DNA from: Candidatus Bathyarchaeota archaeon
GTDB lineage: Archaea; Thermoproteota; Bathyarchaeia; RBG-16-48-13; GCA-020355125
Assembly: GCA_030607815.1 (NCBI GenBank)
Contig: JAUWJG010000001.1
Location: 1 to 35,064 of the forward strand
Length of the DNA stretch: 35,064 nucleotides
Reading direction: 5' to 3'
Shown here: piece after piece, positions 1,286 through 22,333 of the stretch
Numbering within the stretch: the stretch's first letter is position 1
Layout: the number at the start of each line of letters is the position of its first letter
The notes under the pieces: model-generated
The model's input: the letters and a program-made list of their open reading frames with translations, nothing else
Told to the model about the DNA's origin: nothing
Database searches by the model: none
Made by a program: the position numbers and the translations under genes

Positions 1286-1717
1286 TTAGGTTGGTACAAA
1301 CATATATATGGGTTCACCCTCAGAGTTGGGTCTGACCACAAGCTTTACAGTCATACCTACTCTAACAGCTGACAATTTAGCTCCTTTAAGCCATGTTAAT
1401 ATTTTAATTCCTCCTTTCAACCTTCCGATTACAACAGTATATGGTTTCTCTTGTTTGAAGGATGCAGGTCTAATTATTATATGCGTGAAAGCTTCTATTT
1501 CAGCTTCTCCTACCAGTTCAAACCATTCCATCTCTGATGAAAAACAGTTAGAACAATCAGCTACCGGAGGGAAAGTTACTTTTCCACATTTTTTACATTT
1601 AGTGGTATAGATCTTACCCTCTTTCAAACCATCCCAGAATTGTAGAGTTTTACTGTTAGGTATATCATAGATCAAGGTAATTGGTCTTGACTTGAAAGTT
1701 GGCATACTAATTCCCAT
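1286..1717 (-). CDS. DUF35-type Zn-ribbon/OB-fold protein (thiolase-associated scaffold)
   Basis: 143 aa with a CKKCGKVTFPPVADCSNC zinc ribbon followed by an OB-fold-like C-terminus. GGAGGT lies 8 nt upstream of the ATG, inside the end of the upstream thiolase gene, and there is a 6-nt gap to the thiolase stop. Confidence 0.8.
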   Translation of the reverse strand: MGISMPTFKSRPITLIYDIPNSKTLQFWDGLKEGKIYTTKCKKCGKVTFPPVADCSNCFSSEMEWFELVGEAEIEAFTHIIIRPASFKQEKPYTVVIGRLKGGIKILTWLKGAKLSAVRVGMTVKLVVRPNSEGEPIYMFVPT

Positions 1718-1723
1718 AGTTTT

Positions 1724-2908
1724 TTACCTCCGCAAAACGGTTACAAAGCAGTAGTGGCCTGTTCCGCCGACATTATGAGCTAAAGCAATGTAGTTATTTA
1801 ATGGAGCTTGCCTCGTCTTTTCAACTTCTTCTCGCAATTGTTTAGTTAACTCGTACATCATAGAGACTCCTGTTGCACCTATAGGATGACCCTTGGCTTT
1901 AAGACCGCCATCTAGATTTATGGGTATCTTACCACCTATTTCAGTTTGCCCATCTTGAATTAATTTAGCTCCATCACCCTTCCTACATAGACCTAGATCC
2001 TCGTATGCCATTATCTCAGCTATAGTAAAGCAGTCATGTACACTAGCTACCTCAACCTGACCTGGTTCTATTCCAGAAGCTTTGTAAGCTCTCTGTGAAG
2101 CAATAACGGATGAACGAAGCCCAACGTAATTTAATCTCTTACTAAGGTTAGCAGTATCAGAAGAACTTCCTATACCTGATATCCAGATGGGTGTATCTAT
2201 CCCTAGTTCCTTGACCTTCTCTTCTGAAGCAAGGATAATAGCTGATGAACCATCCGTTATTGGACTACAATCATAGAGTTTGAGAGGCCACGAAACTACA
2301 GGAGATGATAAAACATCATCGATAGTTATCTCTCGTTGAAATTGGGCTAAAGGATTCATTGCTCCATACTTATGATTTTTCACAGCAACTCGCGCTAAGT
2401 CTTCCTCAGTTGTACCATAGAGGGCCATGTGAGATGTCGCGTAAAGGGCATAATAAGCAGGGAAGGTCATCCCGAAGTTGTGGAATTCCCATAAATAGTA
2501 TCCAGCTCTTCCGATTAACTCCATTGTCGTCGAAGTGTCTATTTCTCTCATTTTTTCAAGGCCAATTACTAAAGCTAAATCAGTGTTTCCGCTAACAATA
2601 GCAGAATATGCTGTAAAAACTGCCGCACTGCCAGAAGCACAAGCAGCCTCACAGCGGAGTAGACCAGCTCCAGTCAATCCACAATACTCAGCAGCAATTA
2701 CTGCAGGAAGCATCTCCTCATACCAACCTCCAGAACCAACTGATCCAAGCACGAGAAGATCAATATCTTTTCCGATTACTCCGGCATCTTCAAAGGCTGG
2801 CTTCACAGATTCAAAAGTTAACTCAGCAAGATTCACATCTTGTCTAATCCCAAATTTTGAGTTTCCAACACCTATAATAGCTACTTTTTTCACTATATCA
2901 ACTTCCAT
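1724..2908 (-). CDS. Thiolase-family acetyl-CoA C-acyltransferase (archaeal/SCP-x-like type)
   Basis: 394 aa with the active-site Cys context CEAACASGS, GHPIGATG and a C-terminal NVGGTG. Immediately followed by a DUF35 partner gene. Confidence 0.85.
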   Translation of the reverse strand: MEVDIVKKVAIIGVGNSKFGIRQDVNLAELTFESVKPAFEDAGVIGKDIDLLVLGSVGSGGWYEEMLPAVIAAEYCGLTGAGLLRCEAACASGSAAVFTAYSAIVSGNTDLALVIGLEKMREIDTSTTMELIGRAGYYLWEFHNFGMTFPAYYALYATSHMALYGTTEEDLARVAVKNHKYGAMNPLAQFQREITIDDVLSSPVVSWPLKLYDCSPITDGSSAIILASEEKVKELGIDTPIWISGIGSSSDTANLSKRLNYVGLRSSVIASQRAYKASGIEPGQVEVASVHDCFTIAEIMAYEDLGLCRKGDGAKLIQDGQTEIGGKIPINLDGGLKAKGHPIGATGVSMMYELTKQLREEVEKTRQAPLNNYIALAHNVGGTGHYCFVTVLRR

Positions 2909-2931: not shown

Positions 2932-3921
2932 TTAACTTTGTGACCGTGCACTTTTTAGTTCTATTATTTTTTCTTTTAGAGAGGGTACAATTTTGAATAG
3001 ATCATCTACTACACCGTAATTTGCAAAATTAAAGATTGGAGCATTCGGATCTTTATTTATAGCTATAATTAGATCTGAGTTTTTCATTCCTAGAACATGC
3101 TGGAAAGCTCCACTTATTCCAATAGCAAAATAAAGTTTAGACTTTACAGTCTTACCTGATGTCCCAACCTGACGGTCACTTGAAAGCCAACCTTTATCTA
3201 CAATTGGACGGGAACAGGCTAACACTCCTCCGAGAATCTTCGCTAATTCTTCAACCATAGGTTTATTACTCACGTCCTTTATTCCACGGCCAATACTGAC
3301 AAGAATGTCTGCTGTGGTTATATCAATATCTCCACTTAAAGGTAAAAGATATTTGATGAAACGTTTTTTAGATATTTCTTCAGAAAGTGAAGAAGACATT
3401 TCTATTATTTCTCCATTCATCGTGGGTTTTTGAACAGTAAAAGTGGATTGGCGAACAGTGATAATATAACTTTTAGATTTACGGATTGTTGCTCTGACAT
3501 TTACTTTACCACCATACATTTGCCGCGTAACTAAAAGGGTTTCACCATTAAATTTTAGATCTATACAATCCGTTGCAAGAGGTAGATTCAACTTTGTTGC
3601 TAAGCCAGGAGCTAAATCCACACCGTAAGATGTATGACCAATTAATGTTAGAAGTGGCTTTTTTTTGATAATTAATTGAGAAAGCGTCTGTTGATAGGCT
3701 TCAGAATTAAAGTTTTCCAATTTTATATCTTCTATGAGTAAAACCTTTTCTGCGTATTTAGAGAGTGTTTCAGCATATTTTTTAACATCCTTACCCAGCA
3801 AAATTGCTGTTAACTGTGTATCTGTAGTTTCAGCTAATTCTTCCCCTTTCGTGAGCATCTCAAAGGTTATGTCTCTGATTTGTCCTTGTCTATGTTCAGC
3901 TAATACAAAAATTTCTTTCAT
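2932..3921 (-). CDS. etfA: Electron transfer flavoprotein alpha subunit
   Basis: 329 aa with a C-terminal FAD-binding region: RPIVDKGW..QVGTSGKTV..YFAIGISGAFQHVLGM..IIAINKDPNAPIF. No N-terminal ferredoxin domain. Confidence 0.9.
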   Translation of the reverse strand: MKEIFVLAEHRQGQIRDITFEMLTKGEELAETTDTQLTAILLGKDVKKYAETLSKYAEKVLLIEDIKLENFNSEAYQQTLSQLIIKKKPLLTLIGHTSYGVDLAPGLATKLNLPLATDCIDLKFNGETLLVTRQMYGGKVNVRATIRKSKSYIITVRQSTFTVQKPTMNGEIIEMSSSLSEEISKKRFIKYLLPLSGDIDITTADILVSIGRGIKDVSNKPMVEELAKILGGVLACSRPIVDKGWLSSDRQVGTSGKTVKSKLYFAIGISGAFQHVLGMKNSDLIIAINKDPNAPIFNFANYGVVDDLFKIVPSLKEKIIELKSARSQS

Positions 3922-3924
3922 TTT

Positions 3925-4713
3925 TTATATCAACCCCCTTGATTTGAGGAGATCAACAATTTTAGTTGCAATGACCTCTGGAGTTCCCAGAAAGAATTCT
4001 GCACGCTTATCCATAGGAGGAATAAATAGTTCATTAATTATTAACCATGACCCTGCTTCACCAACTTCACTCTCAGATAGACCAGTATCAGTCAAACTGA
4101 GGACTTTTATCTCCTTTTTCATGGCTTTTCTTATTCCCATGATAGAAACGTATCTTGGTTCATTTATCCCCGTCTGGATAGTTAAAACAACCGGTAATTT
4201 TACTTCAACTATCTCCTCTAGACCACCCTCCAATTCACGGTTTACTCTAACAACACTTTCAATAAACTCAATTTTCTTAACCATGGTCGAATGTGAAATC
4301 CCAAGTAACTCAGCAAGTATGGAACCAACCACCGTATACCCGTCATCGCTTGCAAGAACTCCGGTCAGTATTAAATCGAATGGTAAATCCTTAATCACAC
4401 TATGTAATATTTTTGCAATAGCATAACCATCAGAACCCTCAAACTTAGCATCTGTTAGCCTTATTGCTTTATCAGCACCTCTAGCCAAGCACTTCCTTAA
4501 TGTGCGATTTGATTCTTCAGTATTCACAGTTATTGCGGTAATTGTACCACCAAATTTCTCTTTAATACGAACCGCTTCTTCCAATACATAGTCATCCCAT
4601 TCATTGATGTCGAAGACAAGACCCGTTTTTTCTATCGCCTTTCCACTACTATCAATTTTTATTTCCGCTTCTGCGGTCTCAGGAACATGCTTAATGCAAA
4701 CAATTATATCCAA
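3925..4713 (-). CDS. etfB: Electron transfer flavoprotein beta subunit
   Basis: 262 aa with N-terminal IIVCIKHVPETAE and a 3-nt gap to etfA. TTG start is preceded by GGGGGA about 6 nt upstream. Confidence 0.9.
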   Translation of the reverse strand: MDIIVCIKHVPETAEAEIKIDSSGKAIEKTGLVFDINEWDDYVLEEAVRIKEKFGGTITAITVNTEESNRTLRKCLARGADKAIRLTDAKFEGSDGYAIAKILHSVIKDLPFDLILTGVLASDDGYTVVGSILAELLGISHSTMVKKIEFIESVVRVNRELEGGLEEIVEVKLPVVLTIQTGINEPRYVSIMGIRKAMKKEIKVLSLTDTGLSESEVGEAGSWLIINELFIPPMDKRAEFFLGTPEVIATKIVDLLKSRGLI

Positions 4714-4926
4714 ATCATTTCCCCCTAACTACAATTGTATTCTTAAGATTATTTCTTTTTCTAAAGATTACCATTTTAAAAGTTCATAATATGTATTTTA
4801 AAGTATTATTATTTTTCAATAATAGTCAGTAATTAAATACTTCGAATGATGATAAATAGAACTTTTCAAATCGAATATACAAATAAAATGAAAAAAGTTA
4901 AAAAGGAGGGGGTATTAGCTTCAAGT

Positions 4927-5199
4927 ATGGAAGCCTTCATTTTAGTTAATGCAGTATCCGGTAAATTATGGGAAGTAGCTGAAAAAATAAAAAAGATTGA
5001 AGGCGTAAAATTAGCGCAAACGGTTACAGGTCAATTCGATGTGGTTATCTACATCGAACGTAAGGCAATTGATGAGTTGAGCAGTGTTATAAAGAAATTA
5101 CAGGCCATCAAAGGGGTTATAAAGACGCAAACTTTAATAGCGTTACCTCCAAGTTCGCTTTGGACACAGCCTACTTCATTGGAAGAAAAAAATAGATAA
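4927..5199 (+). CDS. Stand-alone Lrp/AsnC C-terminal (RAM/ACT-like) ligand-binding domain protein with no HTH
   Basis: MEAFILVNAVSGKLWEVAEKIKKIEGVKLAQTVTGQFDVVIYIE..IKGVIKTQTLIAL matches the AsnC_trans_reg fold pattern. The ORF is open from 4846, but the ATG at 4927 follows a GGAGGGGG motif. The start is uncertain. Confidence 0.6.
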   Translation: MEAFILVNAVSGKLWEVAEKIKKIEGVKLAQTVTGQFDVVIYIERKAIDELSSVIKKLQAIKGVIKTQTLIALPPSSLWTQPTSLEEKNR

Positions 5200-5255
5200 T
5201 CTTTGAAATTCTTTTTTAGATTCATATTTTCTATAATTATTAGTTAACATCTTAC

Positions 5256-7628
5256 TTAACTTAGAATTTTTTGTTTTATGACAGTACGTTTCTCATCAGA
5301 GAGTGAGCCAAATTTTTTAATTCTTTCTGTAAAGCTAATGAACAATTCAGCTGCTTTCTTATAAACTGGTAAGGGTACATAACTGTAACGAATTCTCATT
5401 CTTTTTATTCCAAACTCTGTCAAGGAACGACTCATCTCAATCATCCTCTTCTTTGAGAACTCTTCATCAATGTCTTGTTGCCCTTCAATCATGAGAATGC
5501 CGTCAGCTCCAAACATAAAAGCATAAAGTAGATGTTTTAAGCCTAAAATTGCAGTTGATGGAATTGAGACTATTCGAATGTTTTCAGGATAATCTACACG
5601 GGCAAGTCCAAGAAAATCCATTCCAGTATAGCCAACATTCTTATCGACAAAGGCAATTATTCGCACTTCATCGTCTTCTTTGTCAGTAAGTACGCCACGT
5701 AATTGGGCAATTATCTGTTTTGTTGTTGAATTCTTGAAGTCAATAGATTCTTTTGGACAAATTGGAATACAAGCACTACAACCAGTACACATGAATAGAT
5801 CAATTGTGGCTTTCTCTTCCCGAATGGTTATTGCATTTGATGGACAAGTCTGGATACAAATTTCGCAGCCATCGCATAATTCTGCTATAACAAAGGCTTT
5901 TTCAGGATTTGTAGTTATGAATTCACTCTTGAGAAACAAGGAAGCTTTGGAAGCTGCTGCCAAAGCATCGGAAACAGTATCACGAACATCTTTTGGACTC
6001 AGTGCACAACCACATGCGAAGATTCCAGTAATCAAAGAATCAACTGGATCAAGTTTTGGATGTCTCTCCTGTATGAACCCATCTTCACCTAAGGGAAGTT
6101 TAATTTTACTAGCAAGATCTTTTAATCCAGAGGATGGAATCATCGGTGTAGCCAAAGCAACAAGATCAAATTCTTCCTCTGAGACATTACCTGTTAAAGT
6201 GTCTTCAACAATAACATTAAGCCTCTTGTTTTTATTCTTCCAGATGTCAGCTACTTTTCCACGAGTAAAAATAACTCCAACTTCCTGGTTCCGCCAATAG
6301 AGCTCTTCATAGCCTTTACCTGTTGCTCTAATATCAGTGTAATAAATGTGAACATCTATACTAAGCATCTTTTTTAAGAGAAAAGCCTGTTTCATGGCAT
6401 ACATGCAGCATATACGACTGCAATATGAGATATGATTTTTATCCCTAGAACCAGCACAAAGAAGTATTGCAATTTTTTTTATGTTTCTACCAGTCATCGT
6501 TACATTACCCTCTGTGGGTCCCGAAGCTGAAGTTAACCGTTCTAATTCCATCATCGAAATTACATTATCATAGATTCCATATCCATAATTGGTAAGTTTT
6601 TTTGCATCATAAAGTTCATAGCCAGTTGCCATTATAATAGCGCCTACATGTAAATCGATTATTTCAGGTAGTTGCTCGAAGTTTATGGCCTGTCGGATAC
6701 ATGCTTGAAAGCATTTATCACAAGCCAAAGTATCTGATTTGAAACAAAGGTCTCTGTCAATTATATATGTTGCAGGAACAGCTTGAGGGAAGGGAACATA
6801 AATAGCATGTCTTACAGCCATTCCTTCTTCGAATTCATTTGGAACAATTACTGGACAAACATTAACACAATCATTGCAACTAGTACACTCCTTTAGGACA
6901 TATCGAGGTTTTTTTAAAATTTTTACATTGAAATTTCCAGGACGTCCTGTTATATCGAGCACTTCTGAATATGTAAGTAAATTCACATTGAGGTTTCTAC
7001 CAATCTCAGCCATCTTTGGCGCAAGAATACATTGAGCACAGTCAAGAGTTGGAAAGACTTTTGTTAGTTTTGACATGTTCCCACCTATGCTCGGGTTTTG
7101 TTCTACAAGATGAACTTTAAAATCTAGATTGCCAAGTTGAAGAGCTGATGTTATTCCAGCTATACCGCCCCCAATAACAAGAATTTCTCTGGAACCTTTT
7201 TCACTTATAGTTTCTAAAGGTTCGAGCTCATGGCTTCGCTCATAACCACCTCTAATTAGGTTTAAAGCCTTTTTTGTAGCCACTATAGAGGCTTGGGGGC
7301 CATGAATCCAGGAGCAGTGTTCTCGAATGTTTACAAATTCTAGCATATATTGATTTAAACCTGCAAAATCTAAAACGTTTTTAAAAGTTGTAAGGTGCAT
7401 TCGAGGAGTACAGCAAGCAACTATAACTCGATCTATATTCTTCTCTTTAATCGATTTAATTATCATTTCCTGAGCGGGTTGAGAACATAAATATTTGTTC
7501 TGTTCTGCTACAATAACATTATCCCAATTTTTAATTTGATCATGTATTGTAGATAGATTAATGACGTCACTAATATTTCCACCACACTCACAAAGAAAGA
7601 TACCTATTCTTTGCAGCTTATTTTCCAT
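5256..7628 (-). CDS. hdrA: Heterodisulfide reductase subunit A-like flavoprotein fused to a C-terminal MvhD/FlpD-like domain
   Basis: 790 aa. N-terminal Cys pattern RIGIFLCECGGNI / VIVACCTPRMH / REHCSW. Dinucleotide-binding motif ILVIGGGIAGITSAL..VEQNPSIGG. Inserted ferredoxin CTSCNDCVNVCP. C-terminal CDGCEICIQTCP and CTGCSACIPICP. The tail RIIAFVDKNVGYTGMDFLG..GADGILMIEG resembles MvhD. Confidence 0.85.
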   Translation of the reverse strand: MENKLQRIGIFLCECGGNISDVINLSTIHDQIKNWDNVIVAEQNKYLCSQPAQEMIIKSIKEKNIDRVIVACCTPRMHLTTFKNVLDFAGLNQYMLEFVNIREHCSWIHGPQASIVATKKALNLIRGGYERSHELEPLETISEKGSREILVIGGGIAGITSALQLGNLDFKVHLVEQNPSIGGNMSKLTKVFPTLDCAQCILAPKMAEIGRNLNVNLLTYSEVLDITGRPGNFNVKILKKPRYVLKECTSCNDCVNVCPVIVPNEFEEGMAVRHAIYVPFPQAVPATYIIDRDLCFKSDTLACDKCFQACIRQAINFEQLPEIIDLHVGAIIMATGYELYDAKKLTNYGYGIYDNVISMMELERLTSASGPTEGNVTMTGRNIKKIAILLCAGSRDKNHISYCSRICCMYAMKQAFLLKKMLSIDVHIYYTDIRATGKGYEELYWRNQEVGVIFTRGKVADIWKNKNKRLNVIVEDTLTGNVSEEEFDLVALATPMIPSSGLKDLASKIKLPLGEDGFIQERHPKLDPVDSLITGIFACGCALSPKDVRDTVSDALAAASKASLFLKSEFITTNPEKAFVIAELCDGCEICIQTCPSNAITIREEKATIDLFMCTGCSACIPICPKESIDFKNSTTKQIIAQLRGVLTDKEDDEVRIIAFVDKNVGYTGMDFLGLARVDYPENIRIVSIPSTAILGLKHLLYAFMFGADGILMIEGQQDIDEEFSKKRMIEMSRSLTEFGIKRMRIRYSYVPLPVYKKAAELFISFTERIKKFGSLSDEKRTVIKQKILS

Positions 7629-7644
7629 TCACTGATATCTCCGT

Positions 7645-7664
7645 TTCCAAGTATATATGTGGAA
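7645..7664. promoter_or_regulatory. Inverted repeat TTCCA-N10-TGGAA centred on TATATA, in the hdrA / hdrD-like divergent spacer
   Basis: The sequence is ctGATATCtccgtTTCCAagTATATAtgTGGAAgatGATATAc. The 5-bp arms flank a palindromic TATATA, and GATATC/GATATA half-sites lie outside the arms. It sits in the 100-bp intergenic region 7629-7728. Confidence 0.35.
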
Positions 7665-7728
7665 GATGATATACAAGAAAAAATACTTAAACCTTATATT
7701 CTTATTTTAGCAGATCGTTACGTTAGAA

Positions 7729-8838
7729 ATGAATCTCCAAGAATTAGTTCAGAAACATAAGCTACTTGAATGCATTCACTGCGGAATGTGTTCTGGAGGT
7801 TGTCCTGTTTCGAGAAAGACAAACTTGAATGTTAGAAAGTATATGCGAGAAGTTGCAGTTTATAATGAAGAAATTAAACCACCACATAATGAACTGTGGA
7901 GTTGTACAACCTGTGCTTCATGTGGAATACGATGTCCTAAGGACATTAATCCTTACGAGTTTTTAATAGATCTCCGCAGTTTGGAAGTTGAAAAAGGGAG
8001 AATTACACCCACGATTCGAGATGCATTAGAAACTATCTTTAACAATGGTAATCCTTGGGGGGGAATAAGAAGTAAAAGATCTGAATGGACTCAAGAATTA
8101 AATGTTAAACATATTTCACAAGGTGCTGACATCCTATATTATGTTGGTTGTACGTCTGCGTACGATCCTCAAGTCCAAAACGTACCAAAAAGCCTTGTAA
8201 AATGTTTGAATAAAGCCGAAGTAGACTTTGGAATTTTAGGCGATGAAGAAAACTGTTGCGGAAGCGAAGTTTATGGAATGGGTGAAAAAGGTTTATTTGA
8301 AGTTTTAATCGAAGAAAACATGAAGAATTTCGTAAAGTATGATATAAAAAATGTTATTGTGAATTGTCCACACGCTTATCATACTTTTATAAATCGATAT
8401 GGAAAAACTTCATTTATAGTACAACATCACACTCAATTACTTGCTACTTTGATTGAAAATGAAAAAATATCCTTCTCTAAAGAACTAAATAAGAAGGTCA
8501 TCTATCATGACCCATGTTTTTTAGGTAAACAGAACGGTATCTACGATGAACCTCGAAAAGTTATTGAAAGTATACCGGGTGTAGAATTATTAGAATTCGA
8601 CCGTTCAAGAGACCGAAGTCTCTGCTGTGAAGGAGGAGGTGGAAGAATGTGGATCGATATCCCTGGAGAGCGTCTTGCAGAAATCCGTGTTAGAAATGCT
8701 GTTGAATATGGAGCAGATATATTAGCTGTAGCATGTCCATTCTGTCGCTTAACCATTGAAGATGCAATTAAAACAACAGATCTAGAAAAGAAAATACGTG
8801 TGATGGATGTAGCAGAATTGGTTTCACTCACATTATGA
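7729..8838 (+). CDS. HdrD/GlcF-like soluble Fe-S protein (2x[4Fe-4S] ferredoxin domain plus two CCG cysteine-rich repeats)
   Basis: 369 aa with CIHCGMCSGGCP and CTTCASCGIRCP. CCG repeat 1 is YYVGC..ENCCGSE..NCPHAY. CCG repeat 2 is HDPC..SLCCEGGGG..ACPFC. No long hydrophobic segment is present. Divergent from hdrA across a 100-bp spacer. Confidence 0.8.
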   Translation: MNLQELVQKHKLLECIHCGMCSGGCPVSRKTNLNVRKYMREVAVYNEEIKPPHNELWSCTTCASCGIRCPKDINPYEFLIDLRSLEVEKGRITPTIRDALETIFNNGNPWGGIRSKRSEWTQELNVKHISQGADILYYVGCTSAYDPQVQNVPKSLVKCLNKAEVDFGILGDEENCCGSEVYGMGEKGLFEVLIEENMKNFVKYDIKNVIVNCPHAYHTFINRYGKTSFIVQHHTQLLATLIENEKISFSKELNKKVIYHDPCFLGKQNGIYDEPRKVIESIPGVELLEFDRSRDRSLCCEGGGGRMWIDIPGERLAEIRVRNAVEYGADILAVACPFCRLTIEDAIKTTDLEKKIRVMDVAELVSLTL

Positions 8839-11337: not shown

Positions 11338-11380
11338 TTTAGCTCAAATATTTTCCTCGAAAGTAAGGAGTCGAAGAAAA

Positions 11381-12373: not shown

Positions 12374-12451
12374 ATTAAGGTAATGAAGTTTGATCTGAGT
12401 GAACAAATTAAATAGAAGTTTAAACATATAGAAGTTCTTGTGGAGATTTAA

Positions 12452-17317: not shown

Positions 17318-17728
17318 TTAAGATGATAATGTATCAAGTTTAAAGAAATATCTGGGCCATTGAGGCCATTGAAGAGGAATAGAGGTATCGAAGTCTACTA
17401 ATAAATTCATACCTACCCTGATTTGTTTTGGGTTCATATCACGAATTATACCAGGTAGGTTGAGACCGGCATTCAATTTTACAATTCCGATAATGTAGGG
17501 GGTTTTAGATTGAAATTGTTCTGTTGAAAAGTGAATCACAGTGTAACTAATTAATTCTCCTTTTCCTTCAAGTTTCACCCAGTTAAAGTTTGTAGAGAGA
17601 CATTTAGTACACATTGGTCTTGGTGGCAGAAATAAGGTTTCGCATTTACAACATTTTGTTGCCATAAGTTTTCGTTCGCCTAAAAATTTGTAGAAGCTTT
17701 CTATAGTGAAGGGAGAATCTTCCAACAT
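17318..17728 (-). CDS. DUF35-type Zn-ribbon/OB-fold protein (second copy)
   Basis: CCKCETLFLPPRPMCTKC zinc ribbon plus an OB-like C-terminus. The preferred start is the MLEDSPF ATG at 17728, 4 nt after the thiolase stop, with GAGGGGA upstream. The ORF track start at 17785 would overlap the thiolase gene. Confidence 0.75.
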   Translation of the reverse strand: MLEDSPFTIESFYKFLGERKLMATKCCKCETLFLPPRPMCTKCLSTNFNWVKLEGKGELISYTVIHFSTEQFQSKTPYIIGIVKLNAGLNLPGIIRDMNPKQIRVGMNLLVDFDTSIPLQWPQWPRYFFKLDTLSS

Positions 17729-17732
17729 ATTG

Positions 17733-18920
17733 TTATCCCCTCTTAAAAATGTGTACCGTCGCACTAGCTCCCGACCCTCCGACATTATAAGATAAACCTA
17801 TTTCAGCTCCACTCACTTGCCTTTTCTCCGCTTGCCCTATCAATTGTAAATATATCTCATAAGCTTGAGCAGTTCCAGTCGCTCCAACAGGATGTCCCTT
17901 CGCCTTCAATCCTCCACTGGTATTGACAGGAATCTCGCCATTAAGGTTTGTTACATTCTGATCGATAAGGTTTCCACCTTTTCCTGGCTTACAAAGACCG
18001 AGATCTTCGTAAGCTATAATTTCAGCAATAGTAAAACAATCGTGAACCTCTATTATATCCAAATCTTTAGGTGTAACCTGCGCCATCTTATATGCTTCAC
18101 GTCCAGCAAGTCTTCCTGCTTTAAGAGTTGTAAGTTCATCTCTTTCGTAAAGACCGATTGTATCACTGGCTTGACCTGTACCAATGATATGAACAGGTAT
18201 ATCCGTAAATGTTTTAGCTATGTTAGGATTGGTTAAAATTAGACAACTAGCTCCATCACTAATTAATGAACAGTCGTACAGTTTCAGGGGCCAAGCTATA
18301 ACTCTTGATGACATTACTTTCTCCAGAGTTATTTCTTTCTGAATGTGGGCTTTCGGGTTTAAGGCTCCATTGTGATGATTTTTTACTGCAACTCGAGCCA
18401 TCTGTTCTTCCGTTGTGCCGTATTTATGCATATGAGCTGTAGCCATGAGAGCATATAACCCCGGAAATGTTATCCCATTCCATTGCTCAAAGGGGAAGTC
18501 AGAGGCCATAGTTAGGAATTCTGTCACGTCCATCGTGGTTCTATGGGTCATTTTTTCCACTCCACCAACCATTACAATGTTATACATACCAGACAGTATG
18601 GCCATAATACCCATTCTAAGGGCAACACCTGATGAAGCACAAGCAGATTCAATTCTTATTGCTGGTCTTGGTAACAAACCAGCCCAGTCAGCTAAGATTG
18701 GTCCGGTATGTCCTTGATGTTCAAAGGATTCACCCATGTGTCCAATAAAGAGTGCTTCAATATCTTTAACTGGATCTAAATTAGGACACTTTTCAAAAGC
18801 TTCTTTCGCTGCTTCAACGAAGATTTCGCGACTACATTTTCCTTCCAGTCGTCCAAACTTTGATAGCCCAGAGGATATGATTGAAACTAAATTCTTTTGC
18901 GTCAATACAGAAACATCCAA
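17733..18920 (-). CDS. Thiolase-family acetyl-CoA C-acyltransferase (second copy)
   Basis: 395 aa with IESACASSG, GHPVGATG, NVGGSG. A clear paralogue of 1724-2908 (shared YGTTEE..ARVAVKNH, WPLKLYDCS, VHDCFTIAEI.AYEDLGLC). TTG start, uncertain. Confidence 0.85.
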   Translation of the reverse strand: MDVSVLTQKNLVSIISSGLSKFGRLEGKCSREIFVEAAKEAFEKCPNLDPVKDIEALFIGHMGESFEHQGHTGPILADWAGLLPRPAIRIESACASSGVALRMGIMAILSGMYNIVMVGGVEKMTHRTTMDVTEFLTMASDFPFEQWNGITFPGLYALMATAHMHKYGTTEEQMARVAVKNHHNGALNPKAHIQKEITLEKVMSSRVIAWPLKLYDCSLISDGASCLILTNPNIAKTFTDIPVHIIGTGQASDTIGLYERDELTTLKAGRLAGREAYKMAQVTPKDLDIIEVHDCFTIAEIIAYEDLGLCKPGKGGNLIDQNVTNLNGEIPVNTSGGLKAKGHPVGATGTAQAYEIYLQLIGQAEKRQVSGAEIGLSYNVGGSGASATVHIFKRG

Positions 18921-19114
18921 TCAGAGATTGTTAAGTAAATAGGATAACTATACAAATATTTATAGTCTCTCATATTAGCAATGAAATGGTTTGGTGATAT
19001 TTTGAAAAAAAACTTGTCTAACAAAAATCAAATGTTCATATAAAAATTGAAAAAGATTAAAAATTGCGAGACTGCCAAACTAGGAGGAGGCACATAATAA
19101 AAGATGGAAAAGAG

Positions 19115-20293
19115 TTAATATTTGTAAAACCCTCGCCCGGTTTTTCTGCCGATCCATCCTTTATCAATATATGTTGTAAGTAACGGACATGGTTTATACA
19201 TCTCCATGTTATACTTCTTGTAAAGCTCATCTAACTTGTTTAATATCCAATCTAAACCTTTTTTATCAGCGTATTCACATGGACCTAAAGACCATCCTGT
19301 TCCCAATTTCATTCCCATATCGATACTATCTGATTCTGCTACATTGTCATAAACTAACCATGCAGCCTCGTTAATGGCAACTACCCAAATTCTTTCAATA
19401 TCATATTCATCAGCTAAATTAAATGGAATTCTTGGTCTTCCTTTACTCCAATCATAAAATCCATGTTTAACTTTCTGACCGAATCTTTTCTCTTTAACAA
19501 GTGGTTCTATAACTTCGTGACAGGGTTTGAATCTTGCTCCATAGGCTTCGTATAATATTTTACCAACTTCATAGACTATGTCTATTCCTACAAAGTCACA
19601 TAATTCAAACCATCCCATTGGAAATCCTCCGATGTACTTTGCAGAAGCATCTATACCTTCCTTGGAAGTTTCGCCTCTATGATAAGCCCAAAAAGCTTCA
19701 TTGAACACCATACCCAAAATTCTATTTACTATGAATCCTCGAACATCTTTCTTGCAGAGTATAGGTGTTTTTCCTATTTGTTTACTAAGTTCTAAGATAA
19801 TTTTTACAGTTTCATCACTTGTATCTTCACCCTTAATTACTTCTATAAGTTGCATCAATTGTGGAGGATTAAACCAATGCATTCCCACAACTTTATCAGG
19901 TCTATTAGTTGCTCTACCCATTTCAGTGATACTTAAAGTGGACGTATTCGTGGCTATTATCGCGTAAGGTGGAGCAATCGCATCAAGTTTAGCGAAGACC
20001 ATTTTTTTAATATTCATTTTTTCGGAAACAACTTCTATAGCCAAGTCTATATCATTTGCAGCTTCCTCATATGATGTTGTTATTTTTATCCTAGATAAAG
20101 CTGCTTCAGCATCCTCTTTCCTTATTCTCCGTTTCTCAACAAACTTATTTAAGCTCCATTCGATTCTCTGAAGACCTTTTTTTAAAAGATCATCATTTAA
20201 ATCGAGAAGATTAACTTCATATCCGCGCATGGAAAAAACTTGCGCTATTCCATGTCCAAGCAATCCCGCTCCAATTATAGCTAACTTTTTCAT
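19115..20293 (-). CDS. 3-hydroxyacyl-CoA dehydrogenase (NAD-binding plus C-terminal dimerisation domains)
   Basis: KKLAIIGAGLLGHGIAQVF Rossmann motif, NTSTLSITE, HWFNPP. The preferred ATG at 20293 lies 8 nt after GAGGT. The ORF is open to 20317. Confidence 0.85.
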   Translation of the reverse strand: MKKLAIIGAGLLGHGIAQVFSMRGYEVNLLDLNDDLLKKGLQRIEWSLNKFVEKRRIRKEDAEAALSRIKITTSYEEAANDIDLAIEVVSEKMNIKKMVFAKLDAIAPPYAIIATNTSTLSITEMGRATNRPDKVVGMHWFNPPQLMQLIEVIKGEDTSDETVKIILELSKQIGKTPILCKKDVRGFIVNRILGMVFNEAFWAYHRGETSKEGIDASAKYIGGFPMGWFELCDFVGIDIVYEVGKILYEAYGARFKPCHEVIEPLVKEKRFGQKVKHGFYDWSKGRPRIPFNLADEYDIERIWVVAINEAAWLVYDNVAESDSIDMGMKLGTGWSLGPCEYADKKGLDWILNKLDELYKKYNMEMYKPCPLLTTYIDKGWIGRKTGRGFYKY

Positions 20294-20340
20294 AGCGACA
20301 AACCTCTTTAAAGACAAAGATAAACTTAAACTGATTAGAC

Positions 20341-21129
20341 TTATTTACCCTTAAACTTAGGTTTCCTCCGAGACATAAATGCTTCTAAGCCTAATTTTAC
20401 ATCTTCTGTTGAGAAGAGTAAACCCATAAGACTGGCTTCCATCCTTAATCCTACTTCAAGTGGAACCTGAGAACCAAAATTTATTGCTTGCTTCGCATAT
20501 TTGAGTGCAATTGGAGGTCCGTCACATATTCTTTGAGACAATGCTCTTGTTTCATCTTTCAACTTGTCATATGGAACAACTTTGTCCACTAAACCTATTT
20601 TTAATGCTTCATCAGCTTTAACTCTATCTCCAAGCATCACAAGTCTTTTTGCAGAAGATATACCAATGATTCGTACAAGTCTTTGGGTAGCACCCCATCC
20701 CGGGATAATGCCTAAATTTATCTCAGGGCTTCCTAGCTCTGCATGTTCAGAAGCTATTCTAAAATCGCAGGCTAATGCCAATTCTAAACCGCCGCCTAAA
20801 GCATATCCATTTATAACAGCGATTACAGGTTTTGATAATGCTTCAATTTTTGAGAAAAGTTTCTGACCAATTCTTGAGAATTCAGTAGCTGTTACAGGAG
20901 TAGCTTTTGAAAATGCCATTAGATCAGCACCAGTACTGAAAGCTCTATCACCTTCTCCTGTGATTATAACGCATCTTACACCAGTATCTTGATCGATTGT
21001 ATCAAGAACTTCAGACAATTCTTCGATTAATGTGTCATTGAACGCGTTTAACCTATGCGGCCTGTTTAAAGTAATTTGAACTGTACTCTTTTCTCTCTCA
21101 ATTTTTAAGGTTTCATACGGTTTAGACAT
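20341..21129 (-). CDS. Enoyl-CoA hydratase (crotonase family)
   Basis: 262 aa with FSTGADL, AVINGYALGGGLELALACDFRIA, PEINLGIIPGWGATQRL. Confidence 0.9.
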   Translation of the reverse strand: MSKPYETLKIEREKSTVQITLNRPHRLNAFNDTLIEELSEVLDTIDQDTGVRCVIITGEGDRAFSTGADLMAFSKATPVTATEFSRIGQKLFSKIEALSKPVIAVINGYALGGGLELALACDFRIASEHAELGSPEINLGIIPGWGATQRLVRIIGISSAKRLVMLGDRVKADEALKIGLVDKVVPYDKLKDETRALSQRICDGPPIALKYAKQAINFGSQVPLEVGLRMEASLMGLLFSTEDVKLGLEAFMSRRKPKFKGK

Positions 21130-21181
21130 TTTTTATACATTCCATTATTCCATTTAAATTTATTAAAAAAGAATTCTTCAA

Positions 21182-22333
21182 TTAGAACATTCTTAACAAA
21201 TATCTAAGAATTGTTAACCTTTGAATTTCCGATGTTCCCTCATAGATCTCAGTTATTTTTGCATCTCTATAGAATTTTTCAACTCTATATTCACGCATAT
21301 ATCCATATCCACCTAACGTTTGAATTGCCACATCAGCTGATTTCACAGCTACCTTACTAGCGTAAAGTTTAGCCATAGAAGTTAACATGGGATCCATAGA
21401 TCCCTGATCAACAGTCCATGCTGCTTTATAGACTAATAGTTGAGCTGCCGCGATTTCTGTGGCTACTTCCGCAAGTTTGCATCCTATTTGTTGAAATTGT
21501 ATAATTGGTTGTCCAAATGCTTCTCTTTGTTTTGCGTATTTGAAAGCTATTTCGAATGCGCCTTGTGCGGTTCCAACCGCTTGAGCTGCAACTCCAATTC
21601 TACTTATATCAAAAAACCACATAGAATGATAAAAGCCTCTATTCAACTCACCCAATATCTCGGCATCAGTTACTTTAACATCACTGAGTGAAACTTCTCC
21701 CGTTGCCGTACATCTGATACCCATCTTATTCTTCTGTTCTAAAACATCTAGTCCAGGAATTCCCTTCTCCACTATAAATAATGTTTGACCTCTATATGTA
21801 GGTCTTACTTTAGTATCTGTTTGACATAGGACTATTATGAAATCAGCTATTGGTGCATTAGTTATGAATGTTTTTGTTCCATTTAACCACCATTCATCTC
21901 CATATTTTCGTGCAATAGTATCCATTTTAGTTATGTCGCTTCCACGAGATGGTTCAGTAAAAGCCGCAGAAGATATATACTCTCCACGACTTAATGGTGG
22001 AAGATATTTTTTCTTTTGTTCTTCAGTTCCATGGTAAAGAAGTAAATCACTTCCAAACAAACCAATCAATGTAGCAATACCAAGGGATGAATCTGCTCTA
22101 CACATTTCTTCCATGGCTATAGCTGCTTCCAAATAACCATACCCTTGTCCACCATATTGTTCAGGAACAAAAAGACTTGTAAATCCAAGTTTTGCAGCCT
22201 TTTTATATAGTTCCATCGGATACTTTTCGTTTTTATCAAGTTCTAACGCTAGTTCAGGAATGAATTCATTTTCACAAAATTCTCTAATTGCACATCTAAT
22301 CTCTAACTGTTCTTCGCTTAATTTAAACTCCAA
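21182..22333 (-). CDS. Acyl-CoA dehydrogenase
   Basis: 383 aa with FTEPSRGSD, the catalytic-Glu context YEGTSEIQRL near the C-terminus, and QTLGGYGY. TTG start follows GGGGA. Confidence 0.9.
   Translation of the reverse strand: MEFKLSEEQLEIRCAIREFCENEFIPELALELDKNEKYPMELYKKAAKLGFTSLFVPEQYGGQGYGYLEAAIAMEEMCRADSSLGIATLIGLFGSDLLLYHGTEEQKKKYLPPLSRGEYISSAAFTEPSRGSDITKMDTIARKYGDEWWLNGTKTFITNAPIADFIIVLCQTDTKVRPTYRGQTLFIVEKGIPGLDVLEQKNKMGIRCTATGEVSLSDVKVTDAEILGELNRGFYHSMWFFDISRIGVAAQAVGTAQGAFEIAFKYAKQREAFGQPIIQFQQIGCKLAEVATEIAAAQLLVYKAAWTVDQGSMDPMLTSMAKLYASKVAVKSADVAIQTLGGYGYMREYRVEKFYRDAKITEIYEGTSEIQRLTILRYLLRMF

Follow-up and report, generated by a model that had tools for sequence, protein, structure and literature searches.

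A putative cytoplasmic, quinone-independent link from ETF to an HdrA-type flavoprotein in Bathyarchaeia

The window analysed here, a 35,064-nucleotide stretch of a Candidatus Bathyarchaeota archaeon contig, carries etfBA beside a thiolase gene, an HdrA with an MvhD-like tail and, divergent from the latter, a soluble iron-sulfur protein whose sequence, fold and ligand signature are of the EMO type. This arrangement exceeds chance and recurs in dozens of related genomes. We infer that the locus provides a cytoplasmic, quinone-independent link from ETF to an HdrA-type flavoprotein. By analogy with class II benzoyl-CoA reductase there is about an even chance that ETF takes the place of the heterodisulfide on the high-potential side of HdrA. 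If true, beta-oxidation could run without a quinone via confurcation, and these quinone-poor sediment anaerobes would handle fatty-acid electrons by flavin-based bifurcation.

Gene content and its conservation in related genomes

The gene positions given in the initial annotation were borne out by ORF calls and Pfam matches (Table 1), as was the full beta-oxidation operon placed further on. The gaps between the DUF35, thiolase, etfA and etfB genes are only 6, 23 and 3 nt, so that co-transcription of the four is plausible, in keeping with the co-operonic reading already made. The DUF35 gene is the final gene of this string and encodes the thiolase's partner. The AsnC/RAM gene, seen only in the closest relatives (L080, L084 and L085), lies between etfB and hdrA, and because it is on the opposite strand the two are neighbours in the window and not a single operon. 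Among window ORFs of at least 80 aa there are no HdrB/HdrC, hydrogenase, FDH, ETF-QO/FixCX or cytochrome genes, as had been stated, and no candidate third partner of HdrA is encoded within the window.

Table 1. Features of the window, numbered from its first nucleotide
Feature	Position	Strand	Basis
DUF35/ChsH2-type zinc-ribbon + OB-fold protein	1286..1717	-	Pfam zf-ChsH2, OB_ChsH2_C
Thiolase	1724..2908	-	Pfam Thiolase_N/C; NCBIfam PRK12578, 603 bits (over cut-off)
EtfA, ETF large subunit with FAD domain	2932..3921	-	Pfam ETF + ETF_alpha
EtfB, ETF small subunit	3925..4713	-	Pfam ETF
AsnC/Lrp ligand-binding (RAM) domain alone, 117 aa, no HTH	4846..5199	+	Pfam AsnC_trans_reg, residues 34-100 only
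HdrA, 790 aa, with C-terminal FlpD/MvhD-type domain	5256..7628	-	
HdrA core, aa 1-649	5682..7628	-	Match to solved HdrA 8rvu_a
MvhD/FlpD-like tail of HdrA, aa 650-790	5256..5681 (stop codon included)	-	Pfam FlpD, E 3.5e-20
hdrA/hdrD-like divergent intergenic spacer	7629..7728	.	Aligned spacers of relatives
Soluble EMO/EtfD-like (HdrD-like) iron-sulfur protein, 369 aa	7729..8838	+	Pfam Fer4_8/17 + 2x CCG
C213-P-H215-A216-Y217 motif, diagnostic EMO-type signature	8365..8379	+	81-sequence consensus
ACAD-ECH-HADH-thiolase-DUF35 operon	17318..22333	-	Pfam

Of 68 related Bathyarchaeia genome loci, 67 carry hdrA and the hdrD-like gene as a divergent pair; the spacer between them measures 93-129 bp in 76 loci. 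Across 77 aligned spacers blocks such as GGAAAACGCT..TTAAAAATC.TTATGCT and AAAAGTGATG are kept, which may represent promoter-like and Shine-Dalgarno-like elements. With hdrA as anchor, etfBA(-ACAD) lies within 5 kb in 28 of 49 loci and etfB within 300 nt downstream in 19 of 65; in 13 loci etfBA adjoins hdrA with a gap of 19-35 nt, junctions that we read as operonic, while ACAD adjoins etfA in 23 of 39. The reverse anchor, on etfB in metagenomes, finds HdrA within 300 nt in 17 of 48 loci and within 6 kb in 18 of 33, so that the neighbourhood conservation proposed as a check in the initial annotation is seen from both sides. The linkage is scattered over the entire HdrD-like tree. In about 18 genome loci a stretch of 7 kb or more around hdrA is free of ETF, which is therefore not an obligatory neighbour. 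Orthologues of the thiolase, 71-75% identical, are found in the beta-oxidation operons of loci L125-L163 and close operons of the order ETF-ACAD-HADH-ACAD-ECH-thiolase-DUF35; relatives also carry an ACAD-ECH-HADH-thiolase-DUF35 set directly 3' of etfBA. Inspection of 160 loci revealed neither a FixCX, EMO or ETF-QO gene nor a membrane anchor in the neighbourhood of etfBA.

Further genes lie 3' of the hdrD-like gene in relatives. In 38 of 80 these comprise a CxxC-containing TrxR-like gene, an NfnAB-like pair of NAD(P)H-type flavoproteins (DHODB-FeS and GltD-like), and an MvhD-polyferredoxin whose two FlpD domains both bear Cys; in 15 of 80 they are TfrAB-like. An ETF arm is combined with an NfnAB-like/MvhD arm in 16 loci, and 12 of the 80 loci have the ETF arm only, which is the window type. 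The TrxR-like, polyferredoxin and NfnAB-like genes, not present in the window, are likely to be third-partner genes of HdrA in the relatives, and the frequency of TrxR-like and TfrAB-like neighbours hints at thiol/disulfide chemistry.

Properties of the iron-sulfur protein, HdrA and ETF

The 369-aa protein contains two [4Fe-4S] motifs and two CCG domains and, as had been noted, no hydrophobic segment: no transmembrane segment was found, the maximum Kyte-Doolittle mean over 19 residues being 1.21. Cluster ligands were mapped after PMC13083937 and the EMO preprint. The HdrC-like domain holds the cysteines for two cubane [4Fe-4S] clusters (C15, 18, 21, 25, 59, 62, 65 and 69), the proximal non-cubane site consists of C263, C299, C300, C336, C339 and His215, and the distal site of C141, C176, C177 and C213, with Ala216 where the fifth Cys is expected. 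That the first CCG motif terminates in C213-P-H-A-Y and not in CxxC was correctly recognized earlier; in 81 sequences the consensus is CPH[G51/S21/A9][Y/F], position 216 is never Cys and the ligand pattern CC...CPH[G/S/A] is invariant. In the S. aciditrophicus EMO, H534 blocks the CoM site, G535 stands for C81 of HdrB, and the FAD of ETF docks beside the non-cubane clusters (EMO preprint). By alignment CPHAY is this Syntrophus EMO signature, combining the His with a missing HdrB C81 equivalent.

The best PDB sequence match is the EtfD 9ojn_A (190 bits, against about 60 for HdrC and about 28 for HdrB), the top Foldseek match is again 9ojn (TMq 0.76 vs 0.50 for HdrB/C), and membrane EMO-like proteins make up 89 of the top 150 representative homologues. 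The protein had been called 'HdrB/HdrD-type', of which the two CCG and two ferredoxin motifs stand, but its nearest solved relative is EtfD/EMO and not HdrB. These comparisons support its assignment as a soluble counterpart of the ETF-oxidising iron-sulfur domains of EtfD/EMO. The closest NCBIfam model is the C-terminal half of TfrB (174 bits), and a Bathyarchaeia TfrB-like paralogue, about 40% identical, shows the C-S...CPHC pattern of M. smegmatis EtfD. Since the His of CPH is near-universal across the wider family, TfrB-like members included, this residue alone would be no bar to thiol catalysis.

Residues 6-649 of HdrA match the solved HdrA 8rvu_a with an E value of 3.5e-191, and the NCBIfam HdrA2 model scores 854 bits, under its cut-off of 1100. 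The core comprises an N-terminal cluster domain, a TrxR-like FAD domain with a C197/C200 pair, an inserted ferredoxin domain, a CSRICCMYxxK413 motif and a C-terminal ferredoxin domain. Across 67 orthologues neither the cluster cysteines nor the C197/C200 pair nor Lys413 varies, and the FAD and [4Fe-4S] motifs reported before hold. The HdrA-MvhD fusion holds as regards the 790-aa length and the FlpD/MvhD-like tail, but not as an electron relay. The tail has zero cysteines, each Cys of the CCNWCSY, VMCSGR and GCHxGDCHY segments of solved MvhDs being replaced; it is Cys-free in 61 of 67 orthologues and strongly conserved all the same, while a hydrogenase-linked HdrA paralogue in locus L025 retains the MvhD cysteines. 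Because the cysteines are missing, the tail is a cluster-less pseudo-MvhD, unable to hold a [2Fe-2S] cluster or relay electrons.

In PDB alignments EtfA has GVDLAP where bifurcating EtfAs have GR[DSE]LA; this Arg, a feature of each of the four solved Bf-EtfAs, occurs in none of 39 EtfA orthologues. EtfB scores 177 bits against 1o94_C, the beta subunit of the AMP-containing W3A1 ETF, vs 112-120 bits against bifurcating EtfBs. The EtfB segment GVLASDDGYTVVG, previously said to match 'neither form', in fact has its aligned counterpart in the Methylophilus W3A1 ETF, GVQSSDQAYASTG. The N-terminal KHVPET segment of EtfB is Bf-like, and the columns that discriminate the types give a mixed picture (14 against 18, out of 68); apart from the missing Arg, the ETF type is ambiguous.

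Proposed electron route and alternative explanations

In the proposed route acyl-CoA dehydrogenases, with the window ACAD as the presumed ETF-reducing or ETF-oxidising enzyme, would trade electrons with an EtfAB of conventional type, probably with a single FAD. ETF would dock at the non-cubane-cluster end of the EMO/EtfD-like protein, from which electrons would pass through the two cubane clusters of the HdrC-like domain to HdrA, both proteins forming a stable complex as HdrBC does with HdrA. The ETF branch is of high potential, about 0 mV. The HdrA FAD would couple it to a low-potential ferredoxin branch, reached via the inserted ferredoxin domain, and also to a two-electron partner of middle potential. 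Run oxidatively, the system would use reduced ETF together with reduced ferredoxin to reduce the mid-potential carrier (confurcation); run reductively, it would take electrons from the carrier to ferredoxin and enoyl-CoA, as in Bcd-EtfAB. The third partner in many relatives is probably NAD(P)H, via the NfnAB-like and MvhD-polyferredoxin genes. A path from ETF through the HdrD-like protein to HdrA had been put forward in the initial annotation; synteny, the EMO-type signature and the BamD precedent favour it, and the literature gives the Hdr substrate in Bathyarchaeia as unknown, but a relay through the MvhD-like tail is excluded. In class II benzoyl-CoA reductase it is through the HdrBC-like BamD that ETF receives the high-potential electron from the HdrA-type BamE (bioRxiv 10.64898/2026.04.10.717634).

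It is conceivable, though rather unlikely, that HdrA and the HdrD-like protein, as a fused HdrCB, form a genuine soluble disulfide reductase for a low-molecular-weight or protein disulfide, ETF adjacency reflecting co-regulation of redox genes or ETF being an occasional donor only. HdrA is about as near to methanogen HdrA as paralogues get (by the E value above), TfrB is a true thiol-using enzyme, the CxxC-containing TrxR-like gene lies directly 3' of the hdrD-like gene in 38 of 80 relatives (TfrAB-like genes in 15), and a heterodisulfide is assumed in the Bathyarchaeia literature. Nevertheless, Cys81, the catalytic bridging residue of HdrB, has no counterpart in any of the 81 sequences, the His by which EMO/EtfD occupies its CoM site never varies, and sequence and fold are much nearer to EtfD than to HdrB; moreover, most Bathyarchaeia are without methanogenesis and have no known thiol cofactor (literature), and ETF linkage is as frequent as TrxR-like linkage and operonic in 13 loci.

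We consider it improbable that the system is a non-bifurcating, two-partner ferredoxin:ETF oxidoreductase, in which reduced ferredoxin would pass electrons via HdrA, the HdrD-like protein and ETF to ACAD for enoyl-CoA reduction, as a fermentative electron sink or in reverse beta-oxidation. The cluster-less tail, the absence of a third module from the window and the 12 loci of window type would fit, and M. acetivorans HdrA2B2C2 has plain Fdx:heterodisulfide oxidoreductase activity (literature). By established thermodynamics, however, about 0.45 V would be lost with no energy conservation, and the oxidative direction required for beta-oxidation would be impossible; further, the bifurcation hallmarks of HdrA (Lys413, the C197/C200 pair and both ferredoxin domains) are strictly conserved, and both arms occur in 16 loci.

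A ferredoxin:heterodisulfide oxidoreductase linked to an Fpo-like complex has been proposed for Methanomassiliicoccales and hot-spring Bathyarchaeia. A soluble HdrD-like protein without HdrE could be recruited to such a membrane complex, as the literature proposes for Bathyarchaeia hdrD, with HdrA an independent enzyme; this is highly improbable here, as in 80 loci the conserved neighbour families include no fpo genes, the hdrD-like gene is locked to hdrA (67 of 68 loci) and its product bears the non-catalytic, EMO-type cluster signature. Fortuitous adjacency of functionally unlinked units, for which the intervening opposite-strand gene and the 18 relatives without ETF nearby might speak, is barely credible and strongly disfavoured by about 55% linkage within 5-6 kb in two independent samplings spanning a class-level phylogeny, by the 13 operonic junctions and by a chance expectation of about 1% for any given pair of genes in a genome of 2 Mb.

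Comparison with known systems

The EMO/EtfD proteins, ETF:(methyl)menaquinone oxidoreductases by which bacteria draw electrons from ETF (S. aciditrophicus SYN_02638; M. smegmatis EtfD, PDB 9OJN), and the window protein have in common the HdrC-like 2x[4Fe-4S] and non-cubane-cluster domains, a proximal site of five Cys and a His, and genomic linkage to etfBA; the distal site is variable in EMO/EtfD, and CC...CPHA of the window corresponds to the S. aciditrophicus type (H534/G535). Unlike them, the window protein is without the N-terminal membrane domain that carries heme b, and therefore without a quinone site, its gene stands in a fixed divergent pair with hdrA and not alone, and its host is an archaeon with no quinone-linked ETF route reported in the literature. 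HdrABC-MvhAGD and HdrA2B2C2 show the same HdrA architecture with all FeS ligands, FAD and Lys, and HdrC-like and HdrB-like modules, which are fused in the window; as in HdrA2, an MvhD-type domain is fused to HdrA. The window differs from methanogen Hdr in that the HdrB-like part has a blocking His and no Cys81 equivalent, the MvhD domain is stripped of all Cys, Mvh and Fdh were not found in the window, and nothing pointed to CoM/CoB.

The FlxABCD-HdrABC system of sulfate reducers, an NADH dehydrogenase/heterodisulfide reductase where FlxA-D feeds HdrA, resembles the cluster-bearing MvhD-like and NAD(P)H-type flavoproteins of 38 of 80 relatives, although their subunits are NfnAB-like and not FlxABC, a TrxR-like gene is added, DsrC is not involved, and the window itself has no NAD(P)H-type module. 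Likeness to TfrAB (thiol:fumarate reductase) is to the C-terminal half of TfrB, the window protein being without the [2Fe-2S] N-terminal extension and the TfrA partner. Geobacter metallireducens BamDEF with ETF is similar by description: in both systems an HdrBC/HdrD-like subunit, its distal non-cubane cluster degraded and its proximal one ligated by a His, is wired to an HdrA-type bifurcating FAD and has ETF as its docked high-potential partner, wiring and docking being proposals in the window. In contrast to the Bam system, the window has neither a BamBC tungsten module nor BamGHI, its HdrA is single-copy where BamE is a fused HdrA dimer, its MvhD tail is cluster-less where BamF is a Sec-containing, cluster-bearing MvhD, and its proposed substrate is acyl-CoA/enoyl-CoA and not benzoyl-CoA. 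The proposed overall chemistry is that of the bifurcating, ETF-based enoyl-CoA reductases Bcd-EtfAB and CarCDE, which likewise join a mid-potential donor to ferredoxin and, through ETF and an ACAD, to acyl-CoA/enoyl-CoA. These bifurcate at the second FAD of EtfB, whereas in the window EtfA is without the Bf Arg, EtfB is nearest to AMP-type ETF, and HdrA would supply the bifurcating flavin.

Conservation of the hdrA/hdrD-like pair and its recurrent partners

More than 4,500 homologues of the HdrD-like protein could be retrieved, and among the best 120 (70-94% identity) those with a named source belong almost all to Candidatus Bathyarchaeia/Bathyarchaeota. These names and an archaeal SRP RNA place the window in Bathyarchaeia, and metagenome contig PVMS01032299.1 (35,997 bp), 99-100% identical in the genes that both contain, is evidently its source. 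With this protein as anchor and one genome taken per GTDB species, a sample of 80 genome loci was obtained, 79 of them from Bathyarchaeia MAGs, in which hdrA is divergently adjacent to the hdrD-like gene in 67 of the 68 loci with enough upstream sequence. The spacer between the two genes measures 93-129 bp in all 76 loci, and an alignment of 77 spacers displays conserved TATA/BRE-like and SD-like blocks (e.g. GGAAAACGCT-TTAAAAATC-TTATGCT), which suggests that this near-constant stretch may act as a shared, possibly regulated, bidirectional promoter. Downstream of hdrA, etfB lies no more than 300 nt away in 19/65 loci and no more than 5 kb away in 28/49; a gap of 19-35 nt in 13 loci implies that the two genes share an operon there; ACAD adjoins etfA in 23/39 loci and a complete HADH-ACAD-ECH-thiolase-DUF35 set often comes next. 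A second, independent sample, anchored on EtfB and drawn from metagenome contigs, places the end of hdrA at most 300 nt upstream of etfB in 17/48 loci and at most 6 kb upstream in 18/33. Neighbourhood conservation, set beforehand as a check on the association claimed by the initial annotation, was therefore borne out both by the pairing of hdrA with the hdrD-like gene and by recovery of the etfB linkage with either anchor. The ETF-hdrA linkage is dispersed across the entire HdrD-like tree and so is old and repeatedly retained, while in about 18 genome loci at least 7 kb around hdrA are free of ETF genes, making the ETF arm frequent, not obligatory. Complete Bathyarchaeia chromosomes that bear the module include CP070730.1, CP070683.1, CP070649.1, CP070835.1 and OY970176.1. 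The single locus outside Bathyarchaeia MAGs (L071, DATKLC010000084.1), labelled Candidatus Krumholzibacteriaceae bacterium, has, with 67-71% identity, the entire cluster typical of Bathyarchaeia (ACAD-etfA-etfB-hdrA / hdrD-like-tfrA-tfrB), and the contig is probably archaeal and wrongly binned. When etfBA loci without hdrA were searched for other genes that might serve ETF reoxidation, a 446-aa and 107-aa pair whose sizes suggested FixC/FixX turned out to be TiaS and a FUN14 protein.

When the ORFs of the 80 loci were all clustered into neighbour families, the hdrD-like gene proved to be followed in 38 loci (L005, L007, L012 and L033 among them) by a four-gene set comprising TrxR-like, polyferredoxin and NfnAB-like genes. 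This set, absent from the window, is a candidate for a third module that would link the Hdr complex to NAD(P)H. TfrA- and TfrB-like genes instead come after the hdrD-like gene in 15/80 loci, with fumarase genes beyond in at least eight; the pattern of locus L069 recurs in L030, L034, L054, L060, L061, L070-L072, L074 and L076-L079. The TfrB-like protein unites a [2Fe-2S] domain, two [4Fe-4S] motifs and two CCG domains, its non-cubane motifs (C-S...CPHC) being of the Mycobacterium smegmatis EtfD type with the His retained, and these neighbours point to a possible ETF:fumarate oxidoreductase, or to a possible partner shared with the Hdr pair. ETF occurs together with the NfnAB-like set in 16 loci, with Tfr in 11 and by itself, as in the window, in 12; the NfnAB-like set is the only one of the three in 22 loci and Tfr in 4, and 15 have none of them. 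The invariant core is the HdrA/HdrD-like pair; ETF/ACAD, fumarate reductase and an NAD(P)H-type module whose MvhD is genuine recur as its partners. Beyond Bathyarchaeia, the nearest soluble HdrD-like homologues lie on Anaerolineales contigs (L164-L166; about 50% identity, CC...SPHC pattern) amid genes for HdrL/HdrA-like flavoproteins, FlpD, FeS proteins, CoA-transferases and ACAD-like proteins, with no etf found within 8 kb. Since these homologues stand in such surroundings, HdrA-type modules linked to acyl-CoA metabolism may extend more widely than Bathyarchaeia.

In the window itself, ORF calling with Pfam and NCBIfam scans located the genes named by the initial annotation where it had placed them, and among the remaining ORFs of the window, again in agreement with it, none encodes HdrB/C, a hydrogenase, formate dehydrogenase, FixCX/ETF-QO or a cytochrome. 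The acyl-CoA synthetase gene carries a frameshift (pseudogene or assembly error), and the luciferase-like monooxygenase gene is probably a pseudogene. The 2-oxoacid dehydrogenase genes, for which no E3 (dihydrolipoamide dehydrogenase) gene was found within the window, suggest, with those preceding them, an island of branched-chain or acetoin catabolism that supplies acyl-CoA dehydrogenases. The stand-alone RAM/AsnC gene is restricted to the closest relatives of the window (L080, L084, L085). The SRP RNA is the sole Rfam match in the window, and tRNA and tandem-repeat scans of its whole length returned no matches.

Features of the window and of the related loci discussed in the text, with coordinates on each sequence
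Sequence	Position	Strand	Feature	Remarks
Window	130-1006	+	AMP-forming acyl-CoA synthetase	Overlapping ORFs 130-579 and 392-1006 match successive parts of the AMP-binding domain; gene extends past window start
Window		-	DUF35, thiolase, EtfA, EtfB	Gaps of 6, 23 and 3 nt
Window	4846-5199	+	AsnC/RAM ligand-domain-only protein, 117 aa	Without DNA-binding domain; between etfB and hdrA
Window	5256-7628	-	HdrA with FlpD/MvhD-type C-terminus, 790 aa	Beside AsnC-type gene; tail (aa 650-790) at 5256-5681
Window	7629-7728		hdrA/hdrD-like spacer	
Window	7729-8838	+	HdrD-like protein, 369 aa	Divergent from hdrA; two ferredoxin-type motifs and two CCG domains
Window	12452-15677	+	2-oxoacid dehydrogenase E1alpha, E1beta, E2	Preceded by HMG-CoA synthase, SDR and Zn-ADH genes
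Window	15892-16970	-	Luciferase-like monooxygenase	In-frame stops; 171-aa ORF covers profile positions 84-161 of 314
Window	17.3-22.3 kb		ACAD-ECH-HADH-thiolase-DUF35 operon	
Window	26.8-28.1 kb		About 1.3 kb ahead of SRP RNA	Longest ORF at most 59 aa
Window	28171-28490	+	Archaeal SRP RNA	Rfam RF01857, 131.6 bits
L005	7026-12461		Four-gene set after hdrD-like gene	
			Four-gene set, gene 1: TrxR-like flavoprotein, 314 aa	CxxC at TrxR position (GVSYCGiCDGP)
			Four-gene set, gene 2: polyferredoxin, 406 aa	Two Cys-bearing FlpD/MvhD domains
			Four-gene set, gene 3: DHODB-FeS (NfnA/PyrK-like), 280 aa	
			Four-gene set, gene 4: GltD/NfnB-like, 472 aa	
L069 (CP070730.1)	11203-14492		TfrA-like (569 aa) and TfrB-like (535 aa)	Directly after hdrD-like gene; fumarase there by Pfam
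L025	13750-16167		Hydrogenase-linked HdrA-MvhD	

Cluster ligands of the HdrD-like protein and of HdrA

Among solved structures, M. smegmatis EtfD (9OJN), the ETF:menaquinone oxidoreductase, matches the HdrD-like protein with 190 bits (E 5e-55, residues 54-365), as against about 60 bits for HdrC and 28 for HdrB in the same comparison, and it is also the top Foldseek match (E 1.5e-18, TMq 0.76; LutA and HdrB about 0.5) of the AlphaFold2 model (pLDDT 81, pTM 0.85). A wider survey, through 1.84 billion representatives, gave a best 150 with 35-50% identity, of which 89 possess at least three TM helices and resemble HdrF and EMO, the ETF:(methyl)menaquinone oxidoreductase of Syntrophus aciditrophicus; a further 15 are TfrB-like proteins, 37 short soluble proteins and 12 in none of these classes. 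Ligand positions were mapped onto the published structures of EtfD and S. aciditrophicus EMO, and their invariance was scored in 81 Bathyarchaeia sequences. Both cubane sites are intact and invariant (C15, 18, 21, 25, 59, 62, 65 and 69, aligning with EtfD C412/415/418/422 and the other cubane ligands), as is the complete proximal non-cubane site, formed by C263, C299, C300, C336, C339 and His215 (EtfD C637, 672, 673, 709, 712 and H583). The distal non-cubane site presents C141, C176, C177 and C213, with Ala216 at the position of HdrB Cys81; its consensus is CC...CPH followed by Gly (51), Ser (21) or Ala (9), never Cys, and the other 17 cluster Cys are invariant save C177, which is kept in 80/81 sequences. 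The CPHAY ending noticed earlier in the first CCG motif is confirmed and corresponds to the pattern of S. aciditrophicus EMO, where H534 fills the site that binds CoM and HdrB C81 is replaced by G535, so that a [4Fe:5S] cluster results; in the cryo-EM complex of EMO with ETF, the ETF flavin lies beside the two non-cubane clusters. An HdrB-type site has an open substrate pocket and ten Cys in two complete CCG motifs, including the equivalents of the bridging Cys81 and Cys234; the HdrD-like protein has nine, with the Cys81 equivalent being Ala, Gly or Ser in 81/81 sequences and His215 present, and on these ligands it is predicted not to be an HdrB-type catalytic unit.

The HdrD-like protein begins 11 residues ahead of its first cluster motif and lacks the N-terminal heme-b membrane domain of EMO and EtfD (about five TM helices, quinone site). 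Its maximum 19-residue Kyte-Doolittle mean of 1.21 upholds the initial view that it has no hydrophobic segment, and no conserved membrane-protein neighbour was found among the families at the 80 loci. Because of the EtfD-like sequence and fold, the homologue survey and the ligand mapping, we place it, as a member without membrane domain, in the EMO-like branch of the non-cubane-cluster proteins. Homology and genomic linkage to etfBA make it a candidate to accept electrons from reduced ETF, as EMO and EtfD do.

Residues 6-649 of HdrA align over their full length with solved methanogen HdrAs (8rvu_a, E 3.5e-191), and the NCBIfam HdrA2 score is 854, below the cut-off of 1100. The protein retains the FAD, the clusters of the N-terminal, TrxR, inserted and C-terminal ferredoxin domains and a Lys near N5; all FeS ligands, the C197/C200 pair and K413, the lysine five residues past the CC doublet, are invariant in 67 orthologues. 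In HdrA-type bifurcating modules the K413-equivalent lysine adjoins flavin N5 (bioRxiv 10.64898/2026.04.10.717634). The MvhD-like tail noted initially is indeed an FlpD/MvhD-type domain fused to HdrA (FlpD, Pfam E 3.5e-20), but it has no Cys, here or in 61/67 orthologues, and so is not a [2Fe-2S]-bearing MvhD: CCNWCSY, VMCSGR and GCHxGDCHY of solved MvhDs read VDKNVGY, SIPSTA and EGQQDIDE in the window, every Cys being substituted in a tail that is otherwise highly conserved. A functional MvhD tail on the ETF-linked HdrA was rejected for this reason. This HdrA carries a pseudo-MvhD, and the usual entry port for a two-electron donor is predicted not to be available in its usual form. A second HdrA-MvhD paralogue adjoins MvhAG-like [NiFe]-hydrogenase genes in 11-14 loci; that of L025, the one sequence examined, retains the MvhD Cys.

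ETF type and possible routes of electron flow

Bifurcating (group 2) ETFs bind a second FAD in EtfB at the place of AMP. The best match of the window EtfB is the AMP-containing ETF of Methylophilus (W3A1) with 177 bits, four bifurcating EtfBs scoring 106-120 bits, and the segment that had been thought to fit neither form, GVLASDDGYTVVG, in fact aligns with W3A1 GVQSSDQAYASTG. EtfA scores 225-194 bits against bifurcating EtfAs and slightly lower, 192 bits, against W3A1, and in the 68 columns that separate W3A1 from two bifurcating EtfBs the window EtfB is W3A1-like at 14 and of the bifurcating type at 18, including the N-terminal KHVPET. The Arg of the EtfA motif G-R-[DSE]-LA, which reportedly lies close to the bifurcating FAD, occurs in 4/4 solved bifurcating EtfAs and not in W3A1; the window EtfA reads GVDLAP, and Arg is found at this position in 0/39 orthologues. 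On account of the missing Arg and the best-match ranking we lean towards a non-bifurcating ETF.

The acyl-CoA/enoyl-CoA couple and ETF lie at about 0 mV, and unaided reduction of NAD(P)+, F420, H+ or ferredoxin is impossible. HdrA couples ferredoxin, a mid-potential donor and a high-potential acceptor. The pair is conserved, ETF is linked to it, the HdrD-like protein bears an EMO-type FeS signature, and HdrA has intact bifurcation hardware and a dead MvhD tail. We give even chances to the reading that ETF stands in for the heterodisulfide as partner of HdrA, with confurcation onto, or bifurcation from, a two-electron carrier. In the oxidative direction, reduced ETF and reduced ferredoxin would be confurcated onto this carrier; in the reductive direction, the carrier would reduce ferredoxin and, through ETF and ACAD, enoyl-CoA. 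The carrier would plausibly be NAD(P)H in loci with NfnAB-like/MvhD-polyferredoxin genes. In class II benzoyl-CoA reductase, HdrBC-like BamD passes the high-potential electron of HdrA-type BamE to ETF, its proximal cluster having five Cys and a His and its distal cluster being degraded (bioRxiv 10.64898/2026.04.10.717634). More tentatively, and with some doubt, we put forward for Bathyarchaeia an undescribed HdrA-based bifurcating/confurcating acyl-CoA system in which ETF would take the place of the CoM-CoB heterodisulfide and be connected to HdrA by an EMO homologue that has no membrane domain, with ferredoxin as low-potential partner and NAD(P)H as two-electron partner through the NfnAB-like/MvhD-polyferredoxin proteins (F420H2 and H2 being alternatives).

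The TrxR-like and TfrAB-like neighbours and the similarity to TfrB would also suit a HdrA/HdrD-like pair acting as a genuine disulfide reductase, which we regard as unlikely: the Cys81 equivalent is absent, the His does not vary, and both sequence and fold resemble those of EtfD. Almost all members of the wider family, TfrB-like ones included, have this His, which is therefore no absolute argument against such a function. A two-partner ferredoxin:ETF oxidoreductase would agree with the dead MvhD tail and with a window holding no third module, but it would waste about 0.45 V and leave the strictly conserved bifurcation features unexplained, and we hold it to be improbable. The Fpo-associated HdrD proposed in the Bathyarchaeia literature is supported by no neighbourhood and seems very improbable for the protein described here. 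That the ETF and Hdr genes adjoin by chance is scarcely credible and was rejected, their recurrence in both samplings going far beyond chance.

Precedents, significance and comparison with known systems

Knowledge of membrane HdrF/EMO-etfBA clusters goes back to 2009 and that of HdrA-MvhD fusions (HdrA2) to 2017; the structures of EMO/EtfD and the link between BamD and ETF appeared in 2025-2026. Studies of Bathyarchaeia list etfAB, hdrABC and hdrD separately and either presume a heterodisulfide or describe the substrate of Hdr as unclear; one genome-centric study explicitly calls it unknown in the non-methanogenic members. Our literature search returned membrane HdrF/EMO-etfBA clusters, BamD-ETF and HdrA2; within its incomplete coverage, which makes an earlier description elsewhere possible, it found no account, for Bathyarchaeia, of a soluble EMO-like protein tied to HdrA and ETF, and none of a cluster-less MvhD tail.

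Bathyarchaeia are among the most abundant archaeal classes of anoxic sediments. Strict anaerobes must find an outlet for the high-potential electrons that acyl-CoA oxidation releases, and the known solutions are a membrane EMO with a reverse redox loop and ETF-based bifurcation; the fixed pairing of HdrA with a soluble EMO homologue would add a third. The proposed acyl-CoA system, if true, would explain the role of Hdr in non-methanogenic Bathyarchaeia and the reoxidation of ETF without quinones, and would bear on models of fatty and branched-chain acid carbon flow in marine and peat sediments. The soluble EMO homologue with its HdrA would also stand, in evolutionary terms, midway between heterodisulfide reductases and ETF oxidoreductases, two groups whose connection was argued for in the EMO work of 2026. 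The module is coherent, widely conserved and experimentally tractable, and its functional steps are those that we infer; being compact and well defined, with three or four soluble proteins kept in hundreds of genomes, its function is directly testable by heterologous expression.

EMO and EtfD share with the HdrD-like protein the two cubane clusters, the proximal site of five Cys and a His and, for the S. aciditrophicus type, a distal site one ligand short, whereas the heme-b membrane domain belongs to EMO/EtfD only. With HdrABC and HdrA2B2C2, which reduce CoM-S-S-CoB in hosts that make CoM and CoB, the window has the HdrA architecture in common, but not the HdrB-type catalytic site or the cluster-bearing MvhD. 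In class II benzoyl-CoA reductase (BamB-I), the BamBC tungsten/FeS and BamGHI NADH/Fd modules adjoin the HdrA-, MvhD- and HdrD-like genes, whereas aldehyde-oxidoreductase-type and NuoEF-type genes were not found in the window or among the conserved neighbours of its relatives. Compared with Bcd-EtfAB, the proposed system would, if true, be a functional analogue assembled from Hdr parts.
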